27,940 nucleotides of DNA from a virus. Taxonomy: Duplodnaviria > Heunggongvirae > Uroviricota > Caudoviricetes. Shown here in pieces: positions 3,509-26,751 of the stretch. Position numbers and translations under genes: made by a program. The DNA lies in the IMG/VR virus record IMGVR_UViG_2778261462_000004; one strand, written 5' to 3'. Below the pieces are notes generated by a model. The model was not told the DNA's origin. It saw only the letters and a program-made list of their open reading frames with translations, and did not search any database. Each line of letters opens with the position of its first letter. Positions within the stretch are counted from its first letter, which is position 1.

Positions 3509-5789
3509 AATTCGGGGGCGTTCTGCCCCTACACCGCCACCACCATTTGCAAAAAACACCGGCAAAGAGTTTGCCGGTGTTTACTCATGGAACGCGCCGC
3601 GTGAGGCTATTGGGCGTGAGAGACCCCTTACACGTGACGAGCTGCGTCAGGTGCAAGGGGTTTTATCTAAAATTGACCGCCTACCTTACTTTTTAAGTTC
3701 TCTGTTTACTTCGCGCTATGAATATATCAGGCGCAACAAAAGCCCTGTGCATGGGCTGTATTTCCTCAAGTCGACATTTCTGCGCCGGTTGTGGCCGCGC
3801 ATTGAGCGGGTTAATCAGCGTAACGAAATGAATACAGAGGCGTCGCTGCTGTTTCTTGCTGAAAGTGAGAATTACGCGCGCCTGCCGGGGATGAACGATA
3901 AAGAGCTGAAAAAATTTGCGTCTCGTATCGCCTCGCAGCTTTTCATCATGTACGAGGAGTTAAGCGACGCATGGGCTGAGGCGCACGGTGGCAAAGAGTC
4001 GCTTTTTACCGATGAGGCTCAGGCGCACCTGTACGGTCATGTTGCTGGCGCAGCTCGTGCTTTTAATGTTGCCCCGCTTTTCTGGAAGAAATACCGCAAA
4101 GGCCTGATGACAATCCGACAGGCATTTTCCGCCGTCGCTCGCCTGATTAACGATGAATGGTGGACTAACCAGCTTAAGGCGCAGCGCATGCGCTGGCATG
4201 AAGCGCTGCTGATTGCTGCAGGCGAGGTGAATAAAGACCGCTCGCCGTATGCCAGTAAAAACGCCATCCGTGATGTGCATGCACGCCGCCTGGCAAATCT
4301 TGAATACCTGAAATCCTGCGAGCTGGAAAACAAAGTTACCGGCGAACGTATCGACCTTATCAGCAAAGTGATGGGAAGTATTTCCAATCCTGAAATTCGC
4401 CGCATGGAGCTGATGAACACCATTGCGGGGATTGAGCGTTATGCCGCTGCTGAGGGTGATGTCGGTATGTTTATCACGCTGACTGCACCGTCGAAGTATC
4501 ACCCGACTCGTCAAGTCGGGAAGGGTAAAGATAAGACTGTACAGCTTAATCATAGCTGGAATGGTGAGGCTTACACCCCGAAGGATGCGCAGCGTTATCT
4601 TTGCCGTATCTGGAGCCTGATGCGTACCGCTTTCAAAGATAATGATTTGCAGGTTTACGGTATGCGCGTCGTCGAACCGCACCATGACGGGACGCCGCAC
4701 TGGCACATGATGCTGTTTTGCAAGCGCCAGCAACGCAAAGAAATCACCGAAATTATGCGTCGTTATGCTCTCAAAGAGGATGGCGACGAGCGCGGTGCTG
4801 CTCGCAACCGCTTTCAGGCTAAGCACCTGAACAAAGGCGGTGCGGCCGGGTACATCGCGAAATACATCGCCAAAAATATCGACGGTTACGCGTTAGATGG
4901 CGAGCTCGATAAAGATACCGGCAAACCGCTCAAAGATACCGCCGCCGCTGTTACTGCATGGGCGTCAACGTGGCGAATCCCTCAGTTTAAGCCGATTGGC
5001 CTGCCGACGATGGGCGCTTACCGTGAGCTGCGCAAGCTGCCTCGCGGGGTCAGTATTGCTGATGAGTTTGACGAGCGTGTCGAAGCAGCACGCGCCGCGG
5101 CTGATGGCGGTGATTTCGACCTGTATATCACTGCTCAGGGCGGCGCAAATGTCCCGCGCGACGGTCAGACCGTCAGGGTCGCCCGTAGCGTCAGTGATGA
5201 GGTTAACGACTACGAAGAAGATATCGAGAGGGTGGTCGGTATTTACGCGCCTCACCTCGGCGCGCGTCACGTTCACATTACCCGGTCATCAGAATGGCGC
5301 ATCGTTCCAAAGGTTTTGGCCGTTGAGCCTTTGACCTTAAAAAGCGGCATCGCCGCGCCTCGGAGTCCTGTCAATAACTGTGGAAAGCTCACCGGCGGTG
5401 ACGTTTCGGTTATGACCACTACACCGTCTGAGTATGCCGCAGCGGTGTTAAATCTTGTTGATGACGGGGTTATCGCATGGGATGACCCCGAAGTCGTGAC
5501 GGCGCTCAAGGGCGCACTAAAACACGACGCGCCGCAGCAAAATCGTCAGCAAAGAAGTGGAGAGCCATTAAAACAGCATGACGTTGCCCCATCAGGCAGG
5601 CTGACTAAATCCGAACGCGCGCAAATACCGCGCATCCGCTTTGACCTTGCGCAGCAAGGCATCACTCCGAAGCGCTGGGAGCTTGAGGCGCTGGCGCGTG
5701 GTGCGACCGTGACATACCACGGGCAGAAATTCACATATCCGGTCGCTGATGAGTGGCCGGGGTTTACTGGTATATCTGAATGGGGGTAA
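3498..5789 (+). CDS. A: rolling-circle replication initiator A (HUH endonuclease), 763 aa from ATG 3498
   Basis: HUH motif ..GTPHWHMMLF.. and double-tyrosine active-site motif ..AGYIAKYIAKN.. visible in the translation; N-terminus MAVEIRGR..AGVYSWNAPREAIGRERPLTRDE.. close to P2 gpA as recalled. Confidence 0.93.
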   Translation: MAVEIRGRSAPTPPPPFAKNTGKEFAGVYSWNAPREAIGRERPLTRDELRQVQGVLSKIDRLPYFLSSLFTSRYEYIRRNKSPVHGLYFLKSTFLRRLWPRIERVNQRNEMNTEASLLFLAESENYARLPGMNDKELKKFASRIASQLFIMYEELSDAWAEAHGGKESLFTDEAQAHLYGHVAGAARAFNVAPLFWKKYRKGLMTIRQAFSAVARLINDEWWTNQLKAQRMRWHEALLIAAGEVNKDRSPYASKNAIRDVHARRLANLEYLKSCELENKVTGERIDLISKVMGSISNPEIRRMELMNTIAGIERYAAAEGDVGMFITLTAPSKYHPTRQVGKGKDKTVQLNHSWNGEAYTPKDAQRYLCRIWSLMRTAFKDNDLQVYGMRVVEPHHDGTPHWHMMLFCKRQQRKEITEIMRRYALKEDGDERGAARNRFQAKHLNKGGAAGYIAKYIAKNIDGYALDGELDKDTGKPLKDTAAAVTAWASTWRIPQFKPIGLPTMGAYRELRKLPRGVSIADEFDERVEAARAAADGGDFDLYITAQGGANVPRDGQTVRVARSVSDEVNDYEEDIERVVGIYAPHLGARHVHITRSSEWRIVPKVLAVEPLTLKSGIAAPRSPVNNCGKLTGGDVSVMTTTPSEYAAAVLNLVDDGVIAWDDPEVVTALKGALKHDAPQQNRQQRSGEPLKQHDVAPSGRLTKSERAQIPRIRFDLAQQGITPKRWELEALARGATVTYHGQKFTYPVADEWPGFTGISEWG

Positions 5790-5806
5790 TTGTGAGAAAA
5801 ATCTGT

Positions 5807-5980
5807 GTGATTGTTGGGTGGATTGCTGGGCTGTCGCTTTTCTTTCTGCTTCTTGGTTGGGCGGGTGAGCAAGACCGTAAAGACTGTGAGGAACGGATAG
5901 CAACAGAGCTGAAAACCACGGCTGTTTTTATAAACAATAAGTGCATGGTGAAGGGGTATGGCCGCTTTGACGGGAGGTGA
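5807..5980 (+). CDS. small single-pass membrane protein (57 aa from GTG 5807; alternative starts ATG 5780 / GTG 5792)
   Basis: Hydrophobic stretch ICVIVGWIAGLSLFFLLLGW followed by a charged tail; GAGAAA 7 nt before GTG 5807; sits where P2 carries orf91/tin/old; followed by a terminator. Confidence 0.4.
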   Translation: MIVGWIAGLSLFFLLLGWAGEQDRKDCEERIATELKTTAVFINNKCMVKGYGRFDGR

Positions 5981-6089
5981 CCTATCTGACCCGAGCAAAC
6001 GCCGCCGGTGCTGAAACTCGCTTTCAGTGCTGGCGGGGTTGAACAACGAGCCCCGCGAGGCGTTAGCCTGCCCCGTAGAGACCGCCCAC

Positions 6090-6118
6090 AACCGGCACGA
6101 TTAAAGCCGGTTTTTTTA
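6090..6118 (+). terminator. candidate intrinsic terminator of the early operon
   Basis: AACCGGC-acgattaaa-GCCGGTT hairpin followed by T7 run (6111-6117). Confidence 0.45.
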
Positions 6119-6277
6119 TGCCATTTTTCCGCGAATTTCCCGTTTTTAAGCCGTGCATGCAACAGGTGCATTGTTTTGCATGCGTCAGGCTTGCCCGTCT
6201 TGGCCGTGCGCCGCCAGTGCTGGCGCGGATCCAGAGTGGTCATGCAACTGCATTAAAACCGACCCATAAAGCGGGCA

Positions 6278-16285: not shown

Positions 16286-17194
16286 ATGGCAACCGTTGAC
16301 CTGAGTCAGTTACCCGTTCCCGACGTGGTTGAGGAACTGGACTATGAAACCATCCTTGCAGAACGCAAAGCGATACTGATTTCGCTTTATCCCGAAGACC
16401 AGCAGGAGGCCATTGCCCGGACGCTGGCACTTGAGTCGGAGCCGATTGTTAAGCTGCTGCAGGAAAACGCCTACCGAGAAGTTATCTGGCGTCAGCGGGT
16501 GAACGAAGCCGCGCAGGCGATAACGCTGGCCTATTCCGCCGGTAATGACCTCGAAGTCGTAGCCGGGAACAACAATACCGAACGCCTGACCATCACCCCG
16601 GCTGATGACACCACCATCCCGCCGACGCCTGCCGTTATGGAATCCGATACCGACCTGCGTCTGCGCACGCAACAGGCGTTTGAGGGCTTGAGCGTGGCGG
16701 GGCCGGTCGGGGCATATGAGTATCACGGTCGCAGCGCCGACGGGCGGGTCGCTGACGTTTCGGTCGCAAGCCCGTCGCCAGCCTGCGTGACGATTACCGT
16801 GCTATCCCGCGAGGATGACGGCACCGCCAGCCCTGAGTTACTGGCAATCGTTGAAAAGGCGCTGAATGCCGAGGATGTGCGCCCGGTGGCCGACCGGGTG
16901 ACTGTCCAGTCAGCCGAGATTGTGCCGTACAAGATTGACGCGACGCTCTACGTTTACCCCGGCCCCGAATCTGAACCCATCAGGCAGGCATCAGAGCAGA
17001 AGCTGCAGAGCTACATCAGCGCGCAGCACCGCCTCGGGCGTGATATCCGCCTGTCAGCCATTTATGCGGCGCTGCATGTCGAAGGTGTGCAACGTGTTGA
17101 GCTGGCATCACCGCAGGCCGATATTGTGCTGAGTAAGTCGCAGGCGTCGAACTGTACCGATTACCAGATAACTATCGGGGGCTCGGATGAGTGA
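16286..17194 (+). CDS. J: baseplate protein J (302 aa)
   Basis: Identical length to P2 gpJ; position. Confidence 0.88.
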   Translation: MATVDLSQLPVPDVVEELDYETILAERKAILISLYPEDQQEAIARTLALESEPIVKLLQENAYREVIWRQRVNEAAQAITLAYSAGNDLEVVAGNNNTERLTITPADDTTIPPTPAVMESDTDLRLRTQQAFEGLSVAGPVGAYEYHGRSADGRVADVSVASPSPACVTITVLSREDDGTASPELLAIVEKALNAEDVRPVADRVTVQSAEIVPYKIDATLYVYPGPESEPIRQASEQKLQSYISAQHRLGRDIRLSAIYAALHVEGVQRVELASPQADIVLSKSQASNCTDYQITIGGSDE

Positions 17195-17795
17195 CCGACT
17201 GTTACCCGTTGGCTCGTCGCCACTGGAGGTTGCCGCCGCTGCCGCGCTCTCTGAGATTCAGCGCGTGCCGGTACCGCTGCGCACACTGTGGAACTGGCGC
17301 ACCTGCCCGGTAAACCTGCTGCCATATCTGGCGTGGGCGCTGTCGGTCGACAGGTGGGATGAGAAGTGGCCGGAGGCAACAAAGCGCAGCGTCTGCGCCT
17401 CCTCGTTTTTCGTCCATCAGCATAAAGGCACTATCAGCGCATTGCGCCGGGTGGTCGAGCCGCTCGGCTTTCTGATTGAGGTGCGCGAGTGGTGGCAGCT
17501 CGACGAGGAGCCAGGCACATTCCGTCTTGTTGTCGGCGTGCTCGACAGCGGCATCACTGACGAAATGTATCAGGAGCTTGAGCGTCTGATTGAAGACGCC
17601 AAACCGGCAAGCCGCCATCTGACCGGGCTGGCTATCAGCCTGAGTGCAACCGGTGAGTTCTTTGTCGGCGCGGGATGTTACGACGGTGACGCGCTGACCG
17701 TTTACCCCTACACCCCCGAGGAAATTGTCGTCGGCGGTGAATATTACCCGGCCTCGGCCATCCATTTGATTGATAACCTGAGAGTGAACGCATGA
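17187..17795 (+). CDS. I: baseplate protein I (202 aa)
   Basis: Overlaps J stop and H start; position as P2 gpI. Confidence 0.85.
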   Translation: MSDRLLPVGSSPLEVAAAAALSEIQRVPVPLRTLWNWRTCPVNLLPYLAWALSVDRWDEKWPEATKRSVCASSFFVHQHKGTISALRRVVEPLGFLIEVREWWQLDEEPGTFRLVVGVLDSGITDEMYQELERLIEDAKPASRHLTGLAISLSATGEFFVGAGCYDGDALTVYPYTPEEIVVGGEYYPASAIHLIDNLRVNA

Positions 17796-18904
17796 CCGCA
17801 AAATATTTTGCCATTCTGACCAATCAGGGCGCGGCGCGACTGGCGAACGCGGCGGCACTCGGTACCAAACTCAACCTGACGCAGATGGCCGTCGGTGATG
17901 CGAATGGTACGCTGCCGACCCCTGACCCGGCACAGACGAAGCTCATTAACCAGAAGCGCATCGCGCCGCTGAACCTGCTGACCGTTGACCCGGCAAATAC
18001 CAGCCAGATTATCGCGGAACAGATTATTCCAGAGAATGAGGGCGGCTTCTGGATCCGCGAGATTGGTATCTACGATGACGACGGCATTCTGATTGCCGTG
18101 GCGAACTGCCCAGAGACCTACAAGCCGCAACTGCAGGAGGGAAGCGGACGCACGCAGACCATTCGCATGATTCTGATTGTGTCAAGCACGTCGTCTATTA
18201 CCCTGAAAATCGACCCGTCGGTTGTGCTGGCAACCCGAAAATATGCCGATGACAAGGCAATTGAGCTGAAACTGTATGTCGATGACTTGATGTCTAAGCA
18301 CCTTGCGGCGGCTGACCCGCATTCACAATATGCTACAAAGGACAGCCCGACCTTTACCGGCAAGCCAAAAGCACCCACGCCGCCGGTCGTAGCAAATGAT
18401 AAACAAGTTGCTACAGCGGAGTTTGTGCAGGCGGTTATTGCCGCCCTTGTATCCGGGGAACTGGCGAATAAGCAGCCGCTGGATAAGACGCTAACAGACC
18501 TGTCAGGGAAAGATGTCGCCGCTATTCTCGAATACCTTGGTTTGAAAGAAGCGGCTCAAAGGGATGTTGGGACTGACATTAACCAGATTCCGGATATGTC
18601 AGCGTGGGACTCTGGATCTAACTGGCGTAGAACGCCAGATGGGTTTATCGAAGTGTGGGGCGATTCATCTGTCACAAACACGTCAACCGGAATTGCTGTT
18701 GCAACATTTCCGGTTCCATTTCCTAATGAGTGTTTGAGCGTCATGATTAATGAAGTGACCAATGTGGCATCTGGTATTTCAGGTGTTAAATCGTGGGGGT
18801 TAGCGCGTGACACAATATCAAAAACAGGTGTATCAGCGATATTGAATGTCACAGGCAGTCCGGCAGCTGGCGAGTTTTTTGTTTATCGTGCAATCGGGAG
18901 ATAA
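17792..18904 (+). CDS. H: tail fibre protein H (short form, 370 aa)
   Basis: N-terminal ~150 aa resemble the P2 gpH N-terminus (..MAVGD..GGFW.RE.G.YDD.G.LIAVAN..YKP...EGSGR.QT.RM..IVSS..); C-terminal ~110 aa carry a ..PDGFIEVWG..VATFPVPFPNECLSV.. motif typical of phage side-tail-fibre tips. Confidence 0.85.
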   Translation: MTAKYFAILTNQGAARLANAAALGTKLNLTQMAVGDANGTLPTPDPAQTKLINQKRIAPLNLLTVDPANTSQIIAEQIIPENEGGFWIREIGIYDDDGILIAVANCPETYKPQLQEGSGRTQTIRMILIVSSTSSITLKIDPSVVLATRKYADDKAIELKLYVDDLMSKHLAAADPHSQYATKDSPTFTGKPKAPTPPVVANDKQVATAEFVQAVIAALVSGELANKQPLDKTLTDLSGKDVAAILEYLGLKEAAQRDVGTDINQIPDMSAWDSGSNWRRTPDGFIEVWGDSSVTNTSTGIAVATFPVPFPNECLSVMINEVTNVASGISGVKSWGLARDTISKTGVSAILNVTGSPAAGEFFVYRAIGR

Positions 18905-18905
18905 T

Positions 18906-19136
18906 ATGAGCAAATATATTTGGTCAGCAAAAAATAATTCATTTATCCCCGTCACATTAATACAATTATATATTAATGCGGGATGGGATTTGTCAGATGC
19001 TATCCCCATTGATGACGCAGTTTCCGCCGAATTTATGGGAGAGCCGCCAGACGGGAAAAGACGAGATGTCGGCGGCGATGGTCTTCCGTGCTGGGTAAAT
19101 GTCAACCAGCCTGGTCAGGTGGAACAGGCCAGTTAA
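18906..19136 (+). CDS. G: tail fibre assembly chaperone G (76 aa, apparently truncated relative to P2 gpG)
   Basis: GGGAGA RBS; N-terminus MSKYIWSAKNNSFIPV.. is the typical Tfa N-terminal motif; ORF is much shorter than P2 gpG (~175 aa). Confidence 0.6.
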   Translation: MSKYIWSAKNNSFIPVTLIQLYINAGWDLSDAIPIDDAVSAEFMGEPPDGKRRDVGGDGLPCWVNVNQPGQVEQAS

Positions 19137-19183
19137 TATCTGGTGCGCTGGATACGTCCACCGCTTCCAGCGTATCCCTAAAG

Positions 19184-19208
19184 AAAAAGCCGCTCTACGC
19201 GGCTTTTT
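19184..19208. terminator. bidirectional intrinsic terminator between G and the convergent minus-strand ORF
   Basis: AAAAAGCCGC-tctac-GCGGCTTTTT: GC stem flanked by A5 and T5. Confidence 0.6.
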
Positions 19209-19209
19209 C

Positions 19210-19548
19210 TTACATCCCGAGTGCAAAATACGTATAGCTGTCAATATTGGTTGCCACTCCCCCCCCATTCCATCCATAAAGACTAAAGCCAGTTAAGGTA
19301 TAATTAACTGACGTCACATACCGATTGTCAGCTGTGATTTTATGCGGCAAAACGATAAACGGGGTGACGTTGAACGGCTTTTTATACCGTACAGTAGCGT
19401 TGGTCGCCTGAACAGAACCGCTCCCCCATTGCAGCAAAAATCCTCCGGGCAATTCAAAGTAGCCATTAGCCTCCAGCAGCCGATCTCCAAAACCAACCTT
19501 TGAAAGAATGGCGGGCTGATGCCCGTCTTTTTTTGATTTATTTATGTG
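19210..19548 (-). pseudogene. orphan tail-fibre C-terminal domain fragment in inverted orientation (113 codons stop-to-stop, no ATG)
   Basis: Minus-strand frame open from the stop at 19549-19551 to the stop at 19210-19212, translating ..NGYFELPGGFLLQWGSGSV..KKPFNVTPF..; same motif pattern as the H tip (..PDGFIEVWG..TFPVPFPN..); only a TTG start with no adjacent SD. Confidence 0.4.
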
Positions 19549-19634: not shown

Positions 19635-20822
19635 ATGAGTGATTTTCACCACGGCGTACAGGTGCTTGAGATTAACGACGGCACCCGCGTCATTTCCACT
19701 GTCGCAACCGCAATCGTCGGCATGGTCTGCACGGCCAGCGATGCGGATGCCGAAACATTCCCCCTCAATGAGCCGGTACTGATTACCAATGTGCAGAGCG
19801 CCATTGCGAAAGCCGGTAAAAAAGGCACGCTGGCTGCATCCCTGCAGGCTATCGCCGACCAGTCAAAACCCGTCACCGTTGTCGTGCGCGTCGCCGAAGG
19901 TGTCGACGATGACCCGGATGCAGCTCAGGCGCAGACCATTTCTAACATCATCGGCGGCACGGATGAGAACGGTAAATACACCGGTATCAAGGCGCTGTTG
20001 ACTGCCGAAGCAGTCACCGGCGTTAAGCCGCGTATTCTCGGCGTGCCGGGTCTCGATACGCAGGAAGTCGCAACCGCACTCGCGTCGGTCTGTATCAGCC
20101 TGCGCGCCTTTGGCTATGTCAGCGTATGGGGCTGTAAGACCATTTCCGAAGCGATGGCCTATCGCGAGAATTTCAGTCAGCGCGAGCTGATGGTCATCTG
20201 GCCTGACTTCCTCGCATGGGATACTACCGCGAACGCCACCGCAACGGCTTACGCCACGGCGCGGGCGCTCGGCCTGCGCGCCTACATCGACCAAACTGTC
20301 GGCTGGCATAAAACCCTGTCCAACGTCGGCGTGCAGGGTGTCACCGGCATCAGTGCCTCAGTGTTTTGGGATTTGCAGGCATCCGGCACCGATGCTGACC
20401 TGCTCAACGAGGCCGGGGTCACGACGCTGGTACGCAAAGATGGTTTCCGCTTTTGGGGTAACCGCACCTGCTCTGATGACCCGCTTTTCCTGTTTGAGAA
20501 CTACACCCGCACCGCGCAGGTGCTGGCCGACACGATGGCCGAGGCGCACATGTGGGCGGCCGATAAGCCCATTACCGCATCGCTCATTCGTGACATTGTC
20601 GACGGCATTAATGCCAAATTCCGCGAGCTGAAATCTAACGGCTACATCGTAGACGGTGAATGCTGGTTCGACGAGGAATCGAACGATAAGGAAACCCTCA
20701 AGGCCGGGAAACTGTATATCGACTACGACTATACGCCGGTTCCCCCACTGGAAAGCCTGACCCTGCGCCAGCGTATCACCGATAAATATCTGGTGAATCT
20801 GGCCGAATCGGTCAACAGCTAA
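19635..20822 (+). CDS. FI: tail sheath protein FI (395 aa)
   Basis: GGAG RBS; size as P2 FI (~396 aa). Confidence 0.93.
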   Translation: MSDFHHGVQVLEINDGTRVISTVATAIVGMVCTASDADAETFPLNEPVLITNVQSAIAKAGKKGTLAASLQAIADQSKPVTVVVRVAEGVDDDPDAAQAQTISNIIGGTDENGKYTGIKALLTAEAVTGVKPRILGVPGLDTQEVATALASVCISLRAFGYVSVWGCKTISEAMAYRENFSQRELMVIWPDFLAWDTTANATATAYATARALGLRAYIDQTVGWHKTLSNVGVQGVTGISASVFWDLQASGTDADLLNEAGVTTLVRKDGFRFWGNRTCSDDPLFLFENYTRTAQVLADTMAEAHMWAADKPITASLIRDIVDGINAKFRELKSNGYIVDGECWFDEESNDKETLKAGKLYIDYDYTPVPPLESLTLRQRITDKYLVNLAESVNS

Positions 20823-26304: not shown

Positions 26305-26341
26305 AACAAAAAGCCCCGCGATTGCGGGGCTTGTTTATTTT
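26305..26341. terminator. bidirectional intrinsic terminator between convergent ogr and the moron ORF
   Basis: GCCCCGC-gatt-GCGGGGC stem (26313-26330) flanked by an A-rich run upstream and TTGTTTATTTT downstream. Confidence 0.7.
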
Positions 26342-26751
26342 GACTTTGGCATTCCAAACATATGCGTTTTTGAGAGCATCACAACTTTAGCTCTGTCATC
26401 TGGCTCTTTACCCATCTCGTTACAAGTTGCGAGAGGCTGTTCGAGCACATAACCAAATGCTTTATGTTTATTCAGTACGTGCAATTCTTTAGTTGTTTTC
26501 ATGTAGGAATTCGGTACATCTTTTGTCCAAACATCCATGCAAATTCCTGAGCTTATGACCGCATCATAAATTTCAGGTGTAACTTGGTTTGCGTCCAAAA
26601 CGACAGTGACAATGTTATTACTTTCTTCTATTTCAATCGGTTGCCATAATTTTAGCTGCTTTTGCAAGGTTTTTACGTTATTCGTTTGGGCGTGGGCGGG
26701 GATAGACAGAAGAATGGCGACGACCGCAACTACCGATTTGAGGTTAAACAT
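26335..26751 (-). CDS. secreted/periplasmic protein of unknown function (138 aa), AT-rich moron
   Basis: Sec-type signal peptide MFNLKSVVAVVAILLSIPAHA-QT; AAGGA RBS 6 nt before ATG; candidate promoter (TTGTTT-17-TATAAA) upstream on the minus strand; AT-rich relative to the phage backbone by eye; two Cys in the mature part; no recognised family. Confidence 0.6.
   Translation of the reverse strand: MFNLKSVVAVVAILLSIPAHAQTNNVKTLQKQLKLWQPIEIEESNNIVTVVLDANQVTPEIYDAVISSGICMDVWTKDVPNSYMKTTKELHVLNKHKAFGYVLEQPLATCNEMGKEPDDRAKVVMLSKTHMFGMPKSK

Follow-up and report, generated by a model that had tools for sequence, protein, structure and literature searches.

Does a tail fibre much shorter than that of P2, followed by a Tfa-like gene of only 76 codons, form a working receptor-binding apparatus, or is it the residue of a recombination accident? 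The question is raised by the fibre locus of a P2/186-like Escherichia coli prophage that integrates beside fieF. We analyzed this locus within a 27,940-nt stretch of viral DNA (IMG/VR record IMGVR_UViG_2778261462_000004; hereafter the window). The arrangement is best read, with a probability of roughly 80%, as an invertible tail-fibre cassette of the Mu G, P1 C or e14 P type, for which we infer a locked state at present. A well-known host-range switch is present here in variant form, and sequencing error is excluded as the cause of the arrangement; the kind of system is already known and the variant is modestly novel. An identical locus is present in the public E. coli assembly GCA_002485555.1, in which the 370-aa and 76-aa genes are called as well.

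A fibre gene split at codon 249

The fibre gene H is an intact open reading frame (17792-18904) and is preceded by gpI (Tail_P2_I), as is the case for P2 gpH-type fibres. An earlier note on this DNA had described H as short, P2-like at its N-terminus and different at its C-terminal tip, and each of these descriptions holds. The protein has 370 aa, against 669 aa for P2 H. Its residues 1-150 cover the full Phage_tail_fib profile (PF12571, E 2e-62), and residues 26-158 are 55% identical to residues 27-159 of P2 H. The tip showed no similarity to that of P2 H in the alignment; residues 281-370 match Gp53-like_C (PF21882, E 3e-12, 47.4 bits for a cut-off of 24.9). A search of NCBIfam returned no match for H and none for the short Tfa-like protein encoded downstream (mini-Tfa). 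When H is compared with that of E. coli CX21, the identity is 98% up to residue 249 and 39% in the tip. This supports the swapped receptor-binding module proposed in the note; that the swap produced an ad hoc chimera is contradicted by the position of the break, which coincides exactly with an invertase crossover site. The anatomy of the locus, as observed directly, is as follows, with the evidence for each feature in brackets.

17792-18536, + strand: constant part of H (codons 1-249), baseplate-attachment domain and shaft (Pfam, P2 H, CX21 identity)
18525-18550, no strand: crossover site L, hix/gix-like, TTCTCGAATACC-TT-GGTTTGAAAGAA (consensus match, conservation, breakpoints)
18537-19496, no strand: invertible segment, 960 bp, from core TT to core AA (in-silico flip, L037, relatives)
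18539-18904, + strand: variable tip B of H (aa 250-370), the tip in the current orientation (Pfam Gp53-like_C)
18906-19136, + strand: mini-Tfa, 76 aa, N-domain only (Caudo_TAP, PHROG, homologues)
19114-19182, - strand: scar, relic of the 3' end of a Tfa gene, containing LEAVDVSSAPDI (comparison with L004 and L005)
19181-19211, no strand: central bidirectional intrinsic terminator (inverted repeat, folding)
19210-19497, - strand: tip C, silent, 95 codons and stop (Pfam Gp53-like_C, frame after flip)
19483-19508, no strand: crossover site R, ATCTCCAAAACC-AA-CCTTTGAAAGAA, inverted relative to site L (direct-repeat family, half-site scoring)
19510-19535, + strand: intrinsic terminator closing the H operon (terminator scan, folding)
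19635-20822, + strand: tail sheath gene FI, right-hand boundary of the locus (Pfam Phage_sheath_1, Phage_sheath_1C, Gp18_domIII_N)

The note had also considered that the tip might be the common form among relatives. This is correct for the architecture: a short H is usual in this group of P2/186-like prophages (370-471 aa in the six relatives examined), and five of the six carry a Gp53-like_C match, one of them weak. It is not correct for the sequence of tip B. Neither tip B nor mini-Tfa has a megablast-level match among 5,426 complete E. coli genomes, and the rare element is this particular tip sequence only. The copy of tip B in L010, of Enterobacter hormaechei type, shares 73% amino-acid identity with it at a dN/dS of 0.09. 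Weak sequence matches of low identity (E 0.002-0.6) connect tip B to the C-terminal region of the R2/R1 pyocin fibres (6CL6, 6CT8, 6CXB) and to the 'Putative tail fiber protein' 4MTM_A.

The second tip lies on the opposite strand. Tip C is likewise a Gp53-like_C domain (E 4e-8, 34.0 bits for the same cut-off of 24.9), and it lacks its own start codon, promoter and chaperone gene. It is 96% identical at the amino-acid level to the expressed tip of L039, with a dN/dS of 0.086, and 84% identical to the expressed tip of L003, whose fibre gene adjoins a baseplate module of the GP46/Baseplate_J/YmfQ type. Gene callers render tip C as an 80-aa fragment and mini-Tfa as a 'phage tail protein'.

Crossover sites, inversion and the missing invertase

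Site L spans codons 245-253 of H (ILEYLGLKE) and splits the gene at codon 249. Scored against the invertase-site consensus, it is the sole match in the window (two mismatches), and 100 shuffled sequences yielded no match. Site R, a member of the direct-repeat family D6, has one good half-site, whereas its outer half deviates at three positions from the same consensus; L001 has the identical outer half, which is of the CCTTT type also seen in L012. The cores, TT at site L and AA at site R, are in inverted orientation. The motif of site L recurs at the same position of H in 12 related loci besides L001-L004, and these four, like other relatives, have such a pair of sites at homologous positions.

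Between the cores, the segment holds tip B and mini-Tfa on the + strand, the bidirectional terminator, and tip C on the - strand. The central terminator consists of a 13-bp perfect inverted repeat (I8) with a GCCGC core and a U-run on both strands, and it is kept in L003 and L004. Its hairpin was not called by the consensus terminator scan, and the assignment is supported by folding (-19.8 kcal/mol on the + strand and -20.2 on the - strand; z of -6.7 and -4.6). The terminator that closes the H operon was called by the scan and folds at -14.5 kcal/mol. In the present orientation, H with tip B (370 aa) and mini-Tfa would be made. Inversion at the 2-bp cores would join tip C to the constant part of H. 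Flipping the 960-bp segment in silico places tip C in frame with codon 249 and gives an uninterrupted H' of 343 aa; the recombinant junctions expected after the flip are ...GAATACC-TT-GGTTTTGGAGAT... and ...TTCTTTCAAACC-AA-CCTTTGAAAGAA....

Comparison with other loci shows the segment to be a unit of exchange whose limits are the crossover cores. The homology of the window with L001 and with L037 breaks at site L. L037, a 1,009-nt Logan contig, is 99.5% identical to the window over 18534-19501 only; its outer half-sites and flanks differ and belong to another backbone, whereas the outer half-sites of the window are those of L001. That L037 is an assembly break caused by flipping was considered and rejected, since the sequence on either side of its segment is unique and derives from another backbone.

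Both orientations are observed among relatives. L012, flipped at its predicted cores, becomes colinear with L011 over 2,199 nt in one HSP, and L019 treated in the same manner becomes colinear with L020 over 4,683 nt, again in one HSP. On the strength of these alignments, inversion is real in the relatives. For the window itself, the counterpart of the predicted product is protein P0161 of L039, which has 343 aa and is 98% identical to H' over 100% of the query. The L039 backbone is of the same invertase-less type, and there tip C is expressed and the partner cassette is different. No flipped copy of the exact window segment was found, and a search of metagenome and viral contigs for the recombinant-junction pattern returned seven loci, all of them from other phages.

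A serine invertase was not detected in the window (tblastn with the L004 invertase in six frames, best E 1.8), and the open reading frames at 5546-6243, 1923-2423 and 26335-26751 had no Pfam or PADLOC match. In L004, L008, L012, L014, L019 and L023, the invertase gene lies between site R and the sheath gene, an interval of which only 126 bp are left in the window. On the reading given here, a serine invertase gene has been deleted from this position. The Fis-dependent enhancer is normally embedded in the invertase gene (Hin, Gin), and by analogy we infer that it was lost together with the gene. As the invertase is absent from the window, the switch is either locked or reliant on an enzyme supplied in trans. 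Most likely it is locked with tip B on, unless an invertase of the Pin/Gin family from another element acts on it.

That the segment still switches by such means, through e14 Pin, PinQ/PinR or the invertase of another P2- or Mu-like prophage, is a real possibility that we rate as distinctly short of an even chance; a lysate would therefore hold both tip-B and tip-C phage. The sites appear intact, and the CCTTT-type outer half-site works in the L012/L011 pair. The reading frame of tip C is likewise intact, its low dN/dS indicates purifying selection, and its expression on the invertase-less L039 backbone is consistent with switching, as is the occurrence of this backbone with varied segments and orientations (window, L001, L039). 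Gin, Cin, Hin and Pin cross-complement. Against flipping in trans stand the missing flipped copy of the window segment and the enhancer: wild-type invertases require a Fis-bound enhancer in cis, within the same supercoiled domain (PMC3798978), and its usual carrier is gone from this locus. There is a precedent for the proposal in the xenorhabdicin loci, P2-like tailocin fibre loci devoid of an invertase, for which inversion in trans has been put forward (bioRxiv 10.1101/2025.04.19.648921).

A Tfa reduced to its N-domain

The downstream gene had been described as encoding a Tfa-like protein of 76 aa, and the profile searches agree, as only the first half of Caudo_TAP (PF02413) is represented. 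Mini-Tfa aligns with profile positions 2-65 of 131 (E 0.004) at a score of 17.6 bits, below the gathering cut-off of 22.1; its relative in L014, of subtype 2, reaches 24.3 bits. Its match to PHROG 188, 'tail fiber assembly protein' (E 4e-17), covers the N-terminal through the central region of that family; PHROG 19350, with 70 positions and of unknown function, is matched end to end (E 3e-9). Over the first 60-75 residues, it is 33-52% identical to the Tfa proteins of 136-162 aa in the fetched loci, with which it has the N-domain in common. It showed no similarity to P2 G (175 aa). The C-terminal helical domain (profile positions about 66-131) is missing. In TfaMu and Pam3 gp25, the N-domain is the fibre-binding domain, and the conserved C-terminal helical domain of Tfa mediates trimerisation (PMC9608196). 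The AlphaFold2 model of mini-Tfa has a pLDDT of 88.5; it found no detectable match among solved structures, and the TfaMu N-domain entry 5YVQ was absent from the matches of both searches.

The start codon of mini-Tfa (ATG at 18906) lies 1 nt past the stop codon of H, and its GGGAG Shine-Dalgarno sequence sits within the last codons of H, an arrangement predicted to couple its translation to that of H. An alternative in-frame ATG at 18846 would give 96 aa; all homologues begin instead at the MS.YIWSAKN position. The homologues fall into ten clusters, 43-99% identical and all of 69-78 aa. Their dN/dS is 0.15-0.43, with synonymous sites saturated between the two subtypes. They are always located 3' of a Gp53-like_C tip, in five contexts that include a Mu-like baseplate module. 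By length, the 150 best representatives separate into two groups, and 38 of them are shorter than 100 aa. Some of the short database relatives are plainly frameshifted junk. When species-representative genomes were scanned for mini-Tfa, the only loci returned were two from Xenorhabdus, and the Tfa genes of both are full-length. By these comparisons, mini-Tfa is a conserved short form of Tfa under purifying selection, and putatively a fibre-binding helper that would suffice for the Gp53-like class of tips. Where the note saw a truncated chaperone, the C-terminal half is indeed missing; the protein is not an accidental truncation, and belongs to a short family that is conserved and under purifying selection.

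The sequence past the mini-Tfa stop codon bears on its origin. The scar, which overlaps the stop codon of mini-Tfa, is what remains of a full-length Tfa gene in antisense, namely its 3' end: window positions 19127-19176 match L004 3943-3992 in reverse complement at 90% identity, and an antisense overlap with a convergent Tfa gene is seen in L005. The last 13 or so codons of mini-Tfa are antisense to the 3' end of such a convergent gene, which indicates that two convergent Tfa genes gave rise to mini-Tfa through a deletion or a fusion.

We weighed two other accounts of the short gene. The note had named, as the finding that would overturn its view, a frameshift beyond which a full-length Tfa is restored. 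We looked for this downstream on the + strand and found no Tfa C-terminal coding sequence in any frame; tblastn of the Tfa C-domain against the window gave only a 19-aa relic on the - strand (79% identity), and a rescue by frameshift was rejected as a candidate. That the 76-aa frame is a sequencing or assembly artefact of a normal gene for a Tfa of 140-175 aa is thus extremely improbable. Its short length speaks for it and nothing else does, whereas independently obtained reads (L037) contain the same frame with one residue changed, relatives of similar size (69-78 aa) are known from many different sources, and beyond the stop codon there follow the antisense Tfa 3' end, the terminator and tip C.

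The other account, in which H is an ad hoc chimera produced by homologous or illegitimate recombination, mini-Tfa is a truncated chaperone pseudogene, and the fibre may fold poorly or not at all, has more in its favor but is still unlikely. The absence of the C-domain, the scar of another Tfa gene adjoining mini-Tfa, its score below the Pfam cut-off and the frameshifts evident in some short database relatives would all fit decay. However, the breaks in the mosaic fall on the crossover cores at either end, and the length of the short form is kept across 43-99% identity at the dN/dS values given above. The short form also recurs with Gp53-like tips in both P2-like and Mu-like contexts, and mini-Tfa has a Shine-Dalgarno sequence, its coupling to the H stop codon and a confidently predicted fold. 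Finally, tip C is accompanied by no chaperone gene in the window, L003, L004 or L039, and yet it is expressed in L003 and L039.

A further-reaching interpretation of mini-Tfa, to which we give somewhat less than even odds, is that N-domain-only proteins of about 70-80 aa form a functional class of recurrent minimal helpers. Each would derive from a Tfa gene that became joined to a convergent Tfa gene at the 3' end of the latter, in antisense, and would bind Gp53-like_C tips without the conserved trimerisation domain, perhaps being retained on the virion as part of the adhesin.

Relation to known switches and implications

The locus has the hallmarks of the Mu G (Gin/gix; S-U versus S'-U'), P1 C (Cin/cix) and e14 P (Pin/pix) segments. 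A 26-bp imperfect palindrome lies at the junction of constant and variable parts inside the fibre gene, the partner site is inverted, the start-less alternative tips occupy opposite strands and come into frame after inversion, and an assembly gene lies within the segment. It differs from these three in that no invertase gene adjoins the segment, a half-sized Tfa accompanies one tip and no Tfa the other, and both tips belong to the Gp53-like_C fold class. With 960 bp, it is also shorter than the Mu G segment, which is about 3 kb.

Its closest counterparts in layout are other P2-like loci. Both orientations of the P2-like prophage fibre locus of EPEC E2348/69 have been documented experimentally (PMC4272514). 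This locus and the invertible relatives that we fetched (L004 from E. coli H2, L008 from Xenorhabdus kozodoii, and L012 and L019 from IMG/VR) share with the window the order I, H, Tfa, inverted cassette and sheath, the positions of the sites and the Gp53-like tips. Unlike the window, they have an invertase between site R and the sheath gene and a full-length Tfa of about 140 aa. The xenorhabdicin loci resemble the window in being P2-type contractile-tail fibre loci in which additional fibre fragments are inverted, inverted repeats are present and an invertase in cis is lacking; they differ from this complete prophage in being tailocins, with other repeat sequences and larger, multi-gene segments. 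With respect to the Caudo_TAP proteins (TfaMu/U of Mu, P2 G, lambda Tfa), mini-Tfa has the homologous N-domain and a gene placed directly after the fibre gene, and it lacks the C-terminal trimerising domain.

For annotation, the + strand alone does not reveal the receptor-binding end of this phage, as a second tip is encoded on the opposite strand. The 26-bp sites delimit a portable 960-bp host-range cassette, and for phage engineering their crossover cores provide natural splice points at which tips can be exchanged on scaffolds of the P2/186 or tailocin type. Gp53-like tips, accompanied by a helper of 76 aa or by no helper at all, would be handy as modules of minimal size. Segments that lack an invertase prompt one to ask how frequently switches of this kind depend on an enzyme supplied in trans. 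In the current model, fibre binding falls to the N-domain of Tfa and trimerisation to the C-domain; a conserved Tfa that consists of the N-domain only provides a natural test of it. If mini-Tfas do form a functional class, the two domains of Tfa would be functionally separable in vivo, and, together with the chaperone-less tip C, this would suggest that Gp53-like tips are evolving away from chaperone dependence.

The fibre gene and its putatively invertible segment

The tail-fibre gene H of this P2/186-like prophage shares its 3' part with a 960-bp segment (18537-19496) bounded by two crossover sites, L and R. The H codons 1-249 form a constant part, and aa 250-370 form the tip that is presently expressed (tip B). 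A second tip (tip C) lies on the opposite strand.

Features of the fibre locus
17187-17795: gpI, upstream of H
17792-18904, + strand: H, ORF of 370 aa
18525-18550: site L, 26-mer, TTCTCGAATACC-TT-GGTTTGAAAGAA, inside H at codons 245-253 (ILEYLGLKE)
18906-19136: mini-Tfa, 76 aa, ATG at 18906, one base past the H stop codon, GGGAG upstream
19114-19182, - strand: scar, antisense relic (~60 nt) of the 3' end of a full-length Tfa (..LEAVDVSSAPDI..)
19181-19211, both strands: hairpin, 13-bp perfect, GC core, U-runs on either strand, between two convergent modules
19210-19497, - strand: tip C, Gp53-like_C (Pfam, E 4e-8)
19483-19508: site R, 26-mer, ATCTCCAAAACC-AA-CCTTTGAAAGAA, inverted relative to site L
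3' of site R: second terminator (terminator scan and folding)
19635-20822, + strand: sheath gene FI, downstream of H

The two ORFs described in the earlier note, an H of 370 aa and a small one of 76 aa, were borne out, as was the P2-like N-terminus of H, which matches Phage_tail_fib (Pfam, aa 1-150, E 2e-62) and is 55% identical to P2 H across aa 26-158. The distinct tip that had been noted is a Gp53-like_C domain (Pfam, aa 281-370, E 3e-12), and in the alignment with P2 H the tips are unrelated (P2 H has 669 aa and P2 G 175 aa). To the question of whether this tip is the common form in relatives the answer is divided: a short H bearing a Gp53-like tip is ordinary in this phage group, but the present tip sequence is rare. 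Neither tip B nor mini-Tfa had a megablast match among 5,426 complete E. coli genomes. The P2 H protein (L052) keeps the peptide motif of the crossover site at aa ~372-383 (VAAVIEYLGLQE vs VAAILEYLGLKE; window counterpart at aa 242-253), and P2 is without an invertible segment despite this motif.

A repeat finder paired 18526-18550 with 19484-19508 (family D6). The central dinucleotides are TT in L and AA in R, and the sites are therefore mutually inverted. Both resemble the hix/gix/cix/pix sites of the Hin/Gin/Cin/Pin invertases; the consensus served as a lead and not as a test, and by it site L is the sole match in the window (2 mismatches; 0 in 100 shuffles). Strand exchange at the cores in silico joins tip C, which lacks its own start codon near the upstream end, to codon 249 in frame, yielding a 343-aa fibre (H'). 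The hairpin folds with -19.8 and -20.2 kcal/mol on its two strands.

The E. coli assembly GCA_002485555.1 is identical to the window sequence, and fieF adjoins the prophage. Between the ogr-like gene and host fieF, a 138-aa ORF (26335-26751, - strand) lies in a low-GC stretch (about 42%) and had no match in Pfam or PADLOC; it is a candidate cargo gene of this prophage end. Between the replication and portal genes, where P2-like phages have a known hotspot for cargo and defence genes, two ORFs of 159 and 181 aa overlap (5546-6243, - strand), likewise with no match in Pfam or PADLOC.

Inversion and exchange among related prophages

The same layout of H, a Tfa (tail-fibre assembly) gene and inverted Tfa and/or tip genes recurs in related P2/186-like prophages: E. 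coli CX21 (L001), phage vB_EcoM-613R3 (L002), E. coli H2 (L004), Xenorhabdus kozodoii (L008) and many IMG/VR contigs. In most of these a serine invertase gene comes next, directly before the sheath gene. Each of the loci L001-L004 has one 26-bp site pair, with the TT core in H and the AA core at the far end of the inverted tip, and the same motif is present in 12 further loci. When flipped at its predicted cores, locus L012 became colinear with L011 (one HSP of 2,199 nt vs three unflipped), and L019 with L020 (one HSP of 4,683 nt). As judged from these alignments, inversion in this family of loci is demonstrably real. The CCTTT outer half-site of site R is common to L012 and the window. Inversions have been documented by experiment in P2-like prophages of EPEC (PMC4272514). 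On the IMG/VR contig L013 (4560-6176), a tip and Tfa cassette is flipped beside the invertase and an intact copy of site R stands at the far end; one inversion alone does not account for this arrangement, which the assembly may have produced by running through repeats.

The best match to the predicted H' in the protein search was P0161 (343 aa, 98% identity, 100% query coverage). Its locus, L039, has the same invertase-less backbone; there tip C is oriented for expression, and the silent partner is another one, an inverted 190-aa Tfa. Between the window and L039 copies of tip C there are 13 synonymous and 4 non-synonymous differences (dN/dS 0.086). At locus L003 a fibre gene beside a GP46/Baseplate_J/YmfQ-type baseplate module expresses a tip C of 84% identity. 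Tip C is, on these comparative grounds, a working tip. Downstream of it, in the window, L003, L004 and L039, there is a terminator and no chaperone gene.

The segment also appears to be portable. H and its L001 counterpart are 98% identical in the constant part, up to aa 249, and just 39% in the tip. A contig of 1,009 nt from a different sample (L037, Logan SRR25820360) matches window 18534-19501 at 99.5% identity and is unrelated beyond it; there the segment is set in a different fibre gene with a different right flank, and homology stops inside the 26-bp sites. The outer half-sites of the window are those of L001 and the inner ones those of L037. Both homology breakpoints are therefore placed inside the 26-bp sites, at the cores or right beside them, which suggests that whole segments are swapped between phage backbones at crossover sites. 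The swapped receptor-binding module proposed in the earlier note stands as an outcome, but the mechanism is instead cassette exchange plus inversion at invertase sites.

No invertase was found when the L004 protein was searched against the whole window by tblastn (best E 1.8). The gap between site R and FI is only 126 bp, and this junction is 96% identical in L001 and L039, both likewise without an invertase gene. The Fis enhancer normally sits within the invertase gene. Hin-type invertases require a Fis-bound enhancer in cis (PMC3798978). Because the window has no invertase and such enzymes need the enhancer in cis, the segment is probably fixed in the orientation that expresses tip B, barring an invertase and an enhancer that act from elsewhere. 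Action in trans has been proposed for the invertase-less P2-type fibre loci of xenorhabdicins (bioRxiv 10.1101/2025.04.19.648921).

The 76-aa Tfa-like protein

Mini-Tfa matches only the first half of the full-length Tfa profile Caudo_TAP (positions 2-65 of 131, E 0.004, under the cut-off). In PHROG 188 'tail fiber assembly protein' the matched region runs from the N-terminus to the centre (E 4e-17), and PHROG 19350, a 70-position profile of unassigned function in the database, matched end to end. There was no similarity to P2 G. A frameshift artefact, by which the ORF would continue past a sequencing error, is ruled out, as the independent reads of L037 hold the same 76-aa ORF (1 aa difference). 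One gene caller chose a 96-aa version (P0001) from an upstream in-frame ATG (18846-18905) overlapping the end of H; the homologues all begin at the 76-aa start position and none at the other.

These homologues form ten clusters of 43-99% identity, every one 69-78 aa long (word-indexed search). They divide into two subtypes with a mutual identity of about 47-50%, between which synonymous sites are saturated; dN/dS is 0.43 in subtype 1 and 0.15-0.23 in subtype 2. A profile search run exhaustively over 1.84 billion representatives returned 420 matches, and the lengths in the best 150 fall into two groups (38 below 100 aa, 78 of 130-149 aa). The very best matches are mostly short, and some short ones are plainly frameshift junk. 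The full-length relatives (136-162 aa) have the N-domain in common and run on into a conserved C-domain. As a description, then, the truncated chaperone of the earlier note holds, the C-domain being absent, but the accident it implied does not, the short form being a conserved family of 69-78 aa. In TfaMu and Pam3 gp25 the fibre is bound by the N-domain, and conserved C-terminal helices trimerise (PMC9608196). Mini-Tfa has kept the N-domain and lacks the C-terminal helices. Its AF2 model is confident (pLDDT 88.5), and structure searches with it detected no solved homologue.

In all contexts examined (the window; L005/L010, of Enterobacter hormaechei type; L014; L049; the Mu-like L048) mini-Tfa is preceded by a Gp53-like_C tip. 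In other relatives the partner of such tips is a normal Caudo_TAP protein, about 141 aa long. From the pairings seen across relatives, this tip class therefore occurs with a full, half or no Tfa. In the Mu-like baseplate module of E. coli L048 (4001-4760), a 212-aa Gp53-like_C fibre and a 75-aa mini-Tfa are followed on the same strand by a 109-aa Caudo_TAP ORF and a 65-aa ORF; here the domains of one Tfa may be encoded apart from each other.

In L005, mini-Tfa ends in ~13 codons and a stop that are antisense to the C-terminal '..DISWPVPP..' codons of a full-length convergent Tfa, and the short form therefore looks like a Tfa N-domain to which the 3' end of the neighbouring Tfa has been joined in antisense. 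Of that antisense Tfa the window has only the relic (19114-19176); it matches L004 3943-3992, reverse-complemented, at 90% identity, and after it come ~8 nt from the 3' end of a forward Tfa, then the hairpin and tip C. The relic and the ~8-nt piece look like two stumps of a deleted palindromic cassette pair. Speculatively, two tip-Tfa cassettes pointing outwards, tips innermost, would once have stood between the present two modules and then been deleted.

Relation to known systems

In its working the locus resembles the tail-fibre inversion systems Mu G, P1 C and e14 P, as well as invertible loci in other P2-like prophages, with which it shares the sites, the in-gene junction and the opposed, start-less tips. 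The adjacent invertase of those systems is absent, and flipping of the window copy is putative. The inversion system itself is already well known, and the window locus differs from it as a variant. Tfa proteins have N-domains homologous to mini-Tfa, whereas their defining conserved C-domain is theirs only. The main interest lies in this conserved N-domain-only Tfa, together with chaperone-poor Gp53-like tips.
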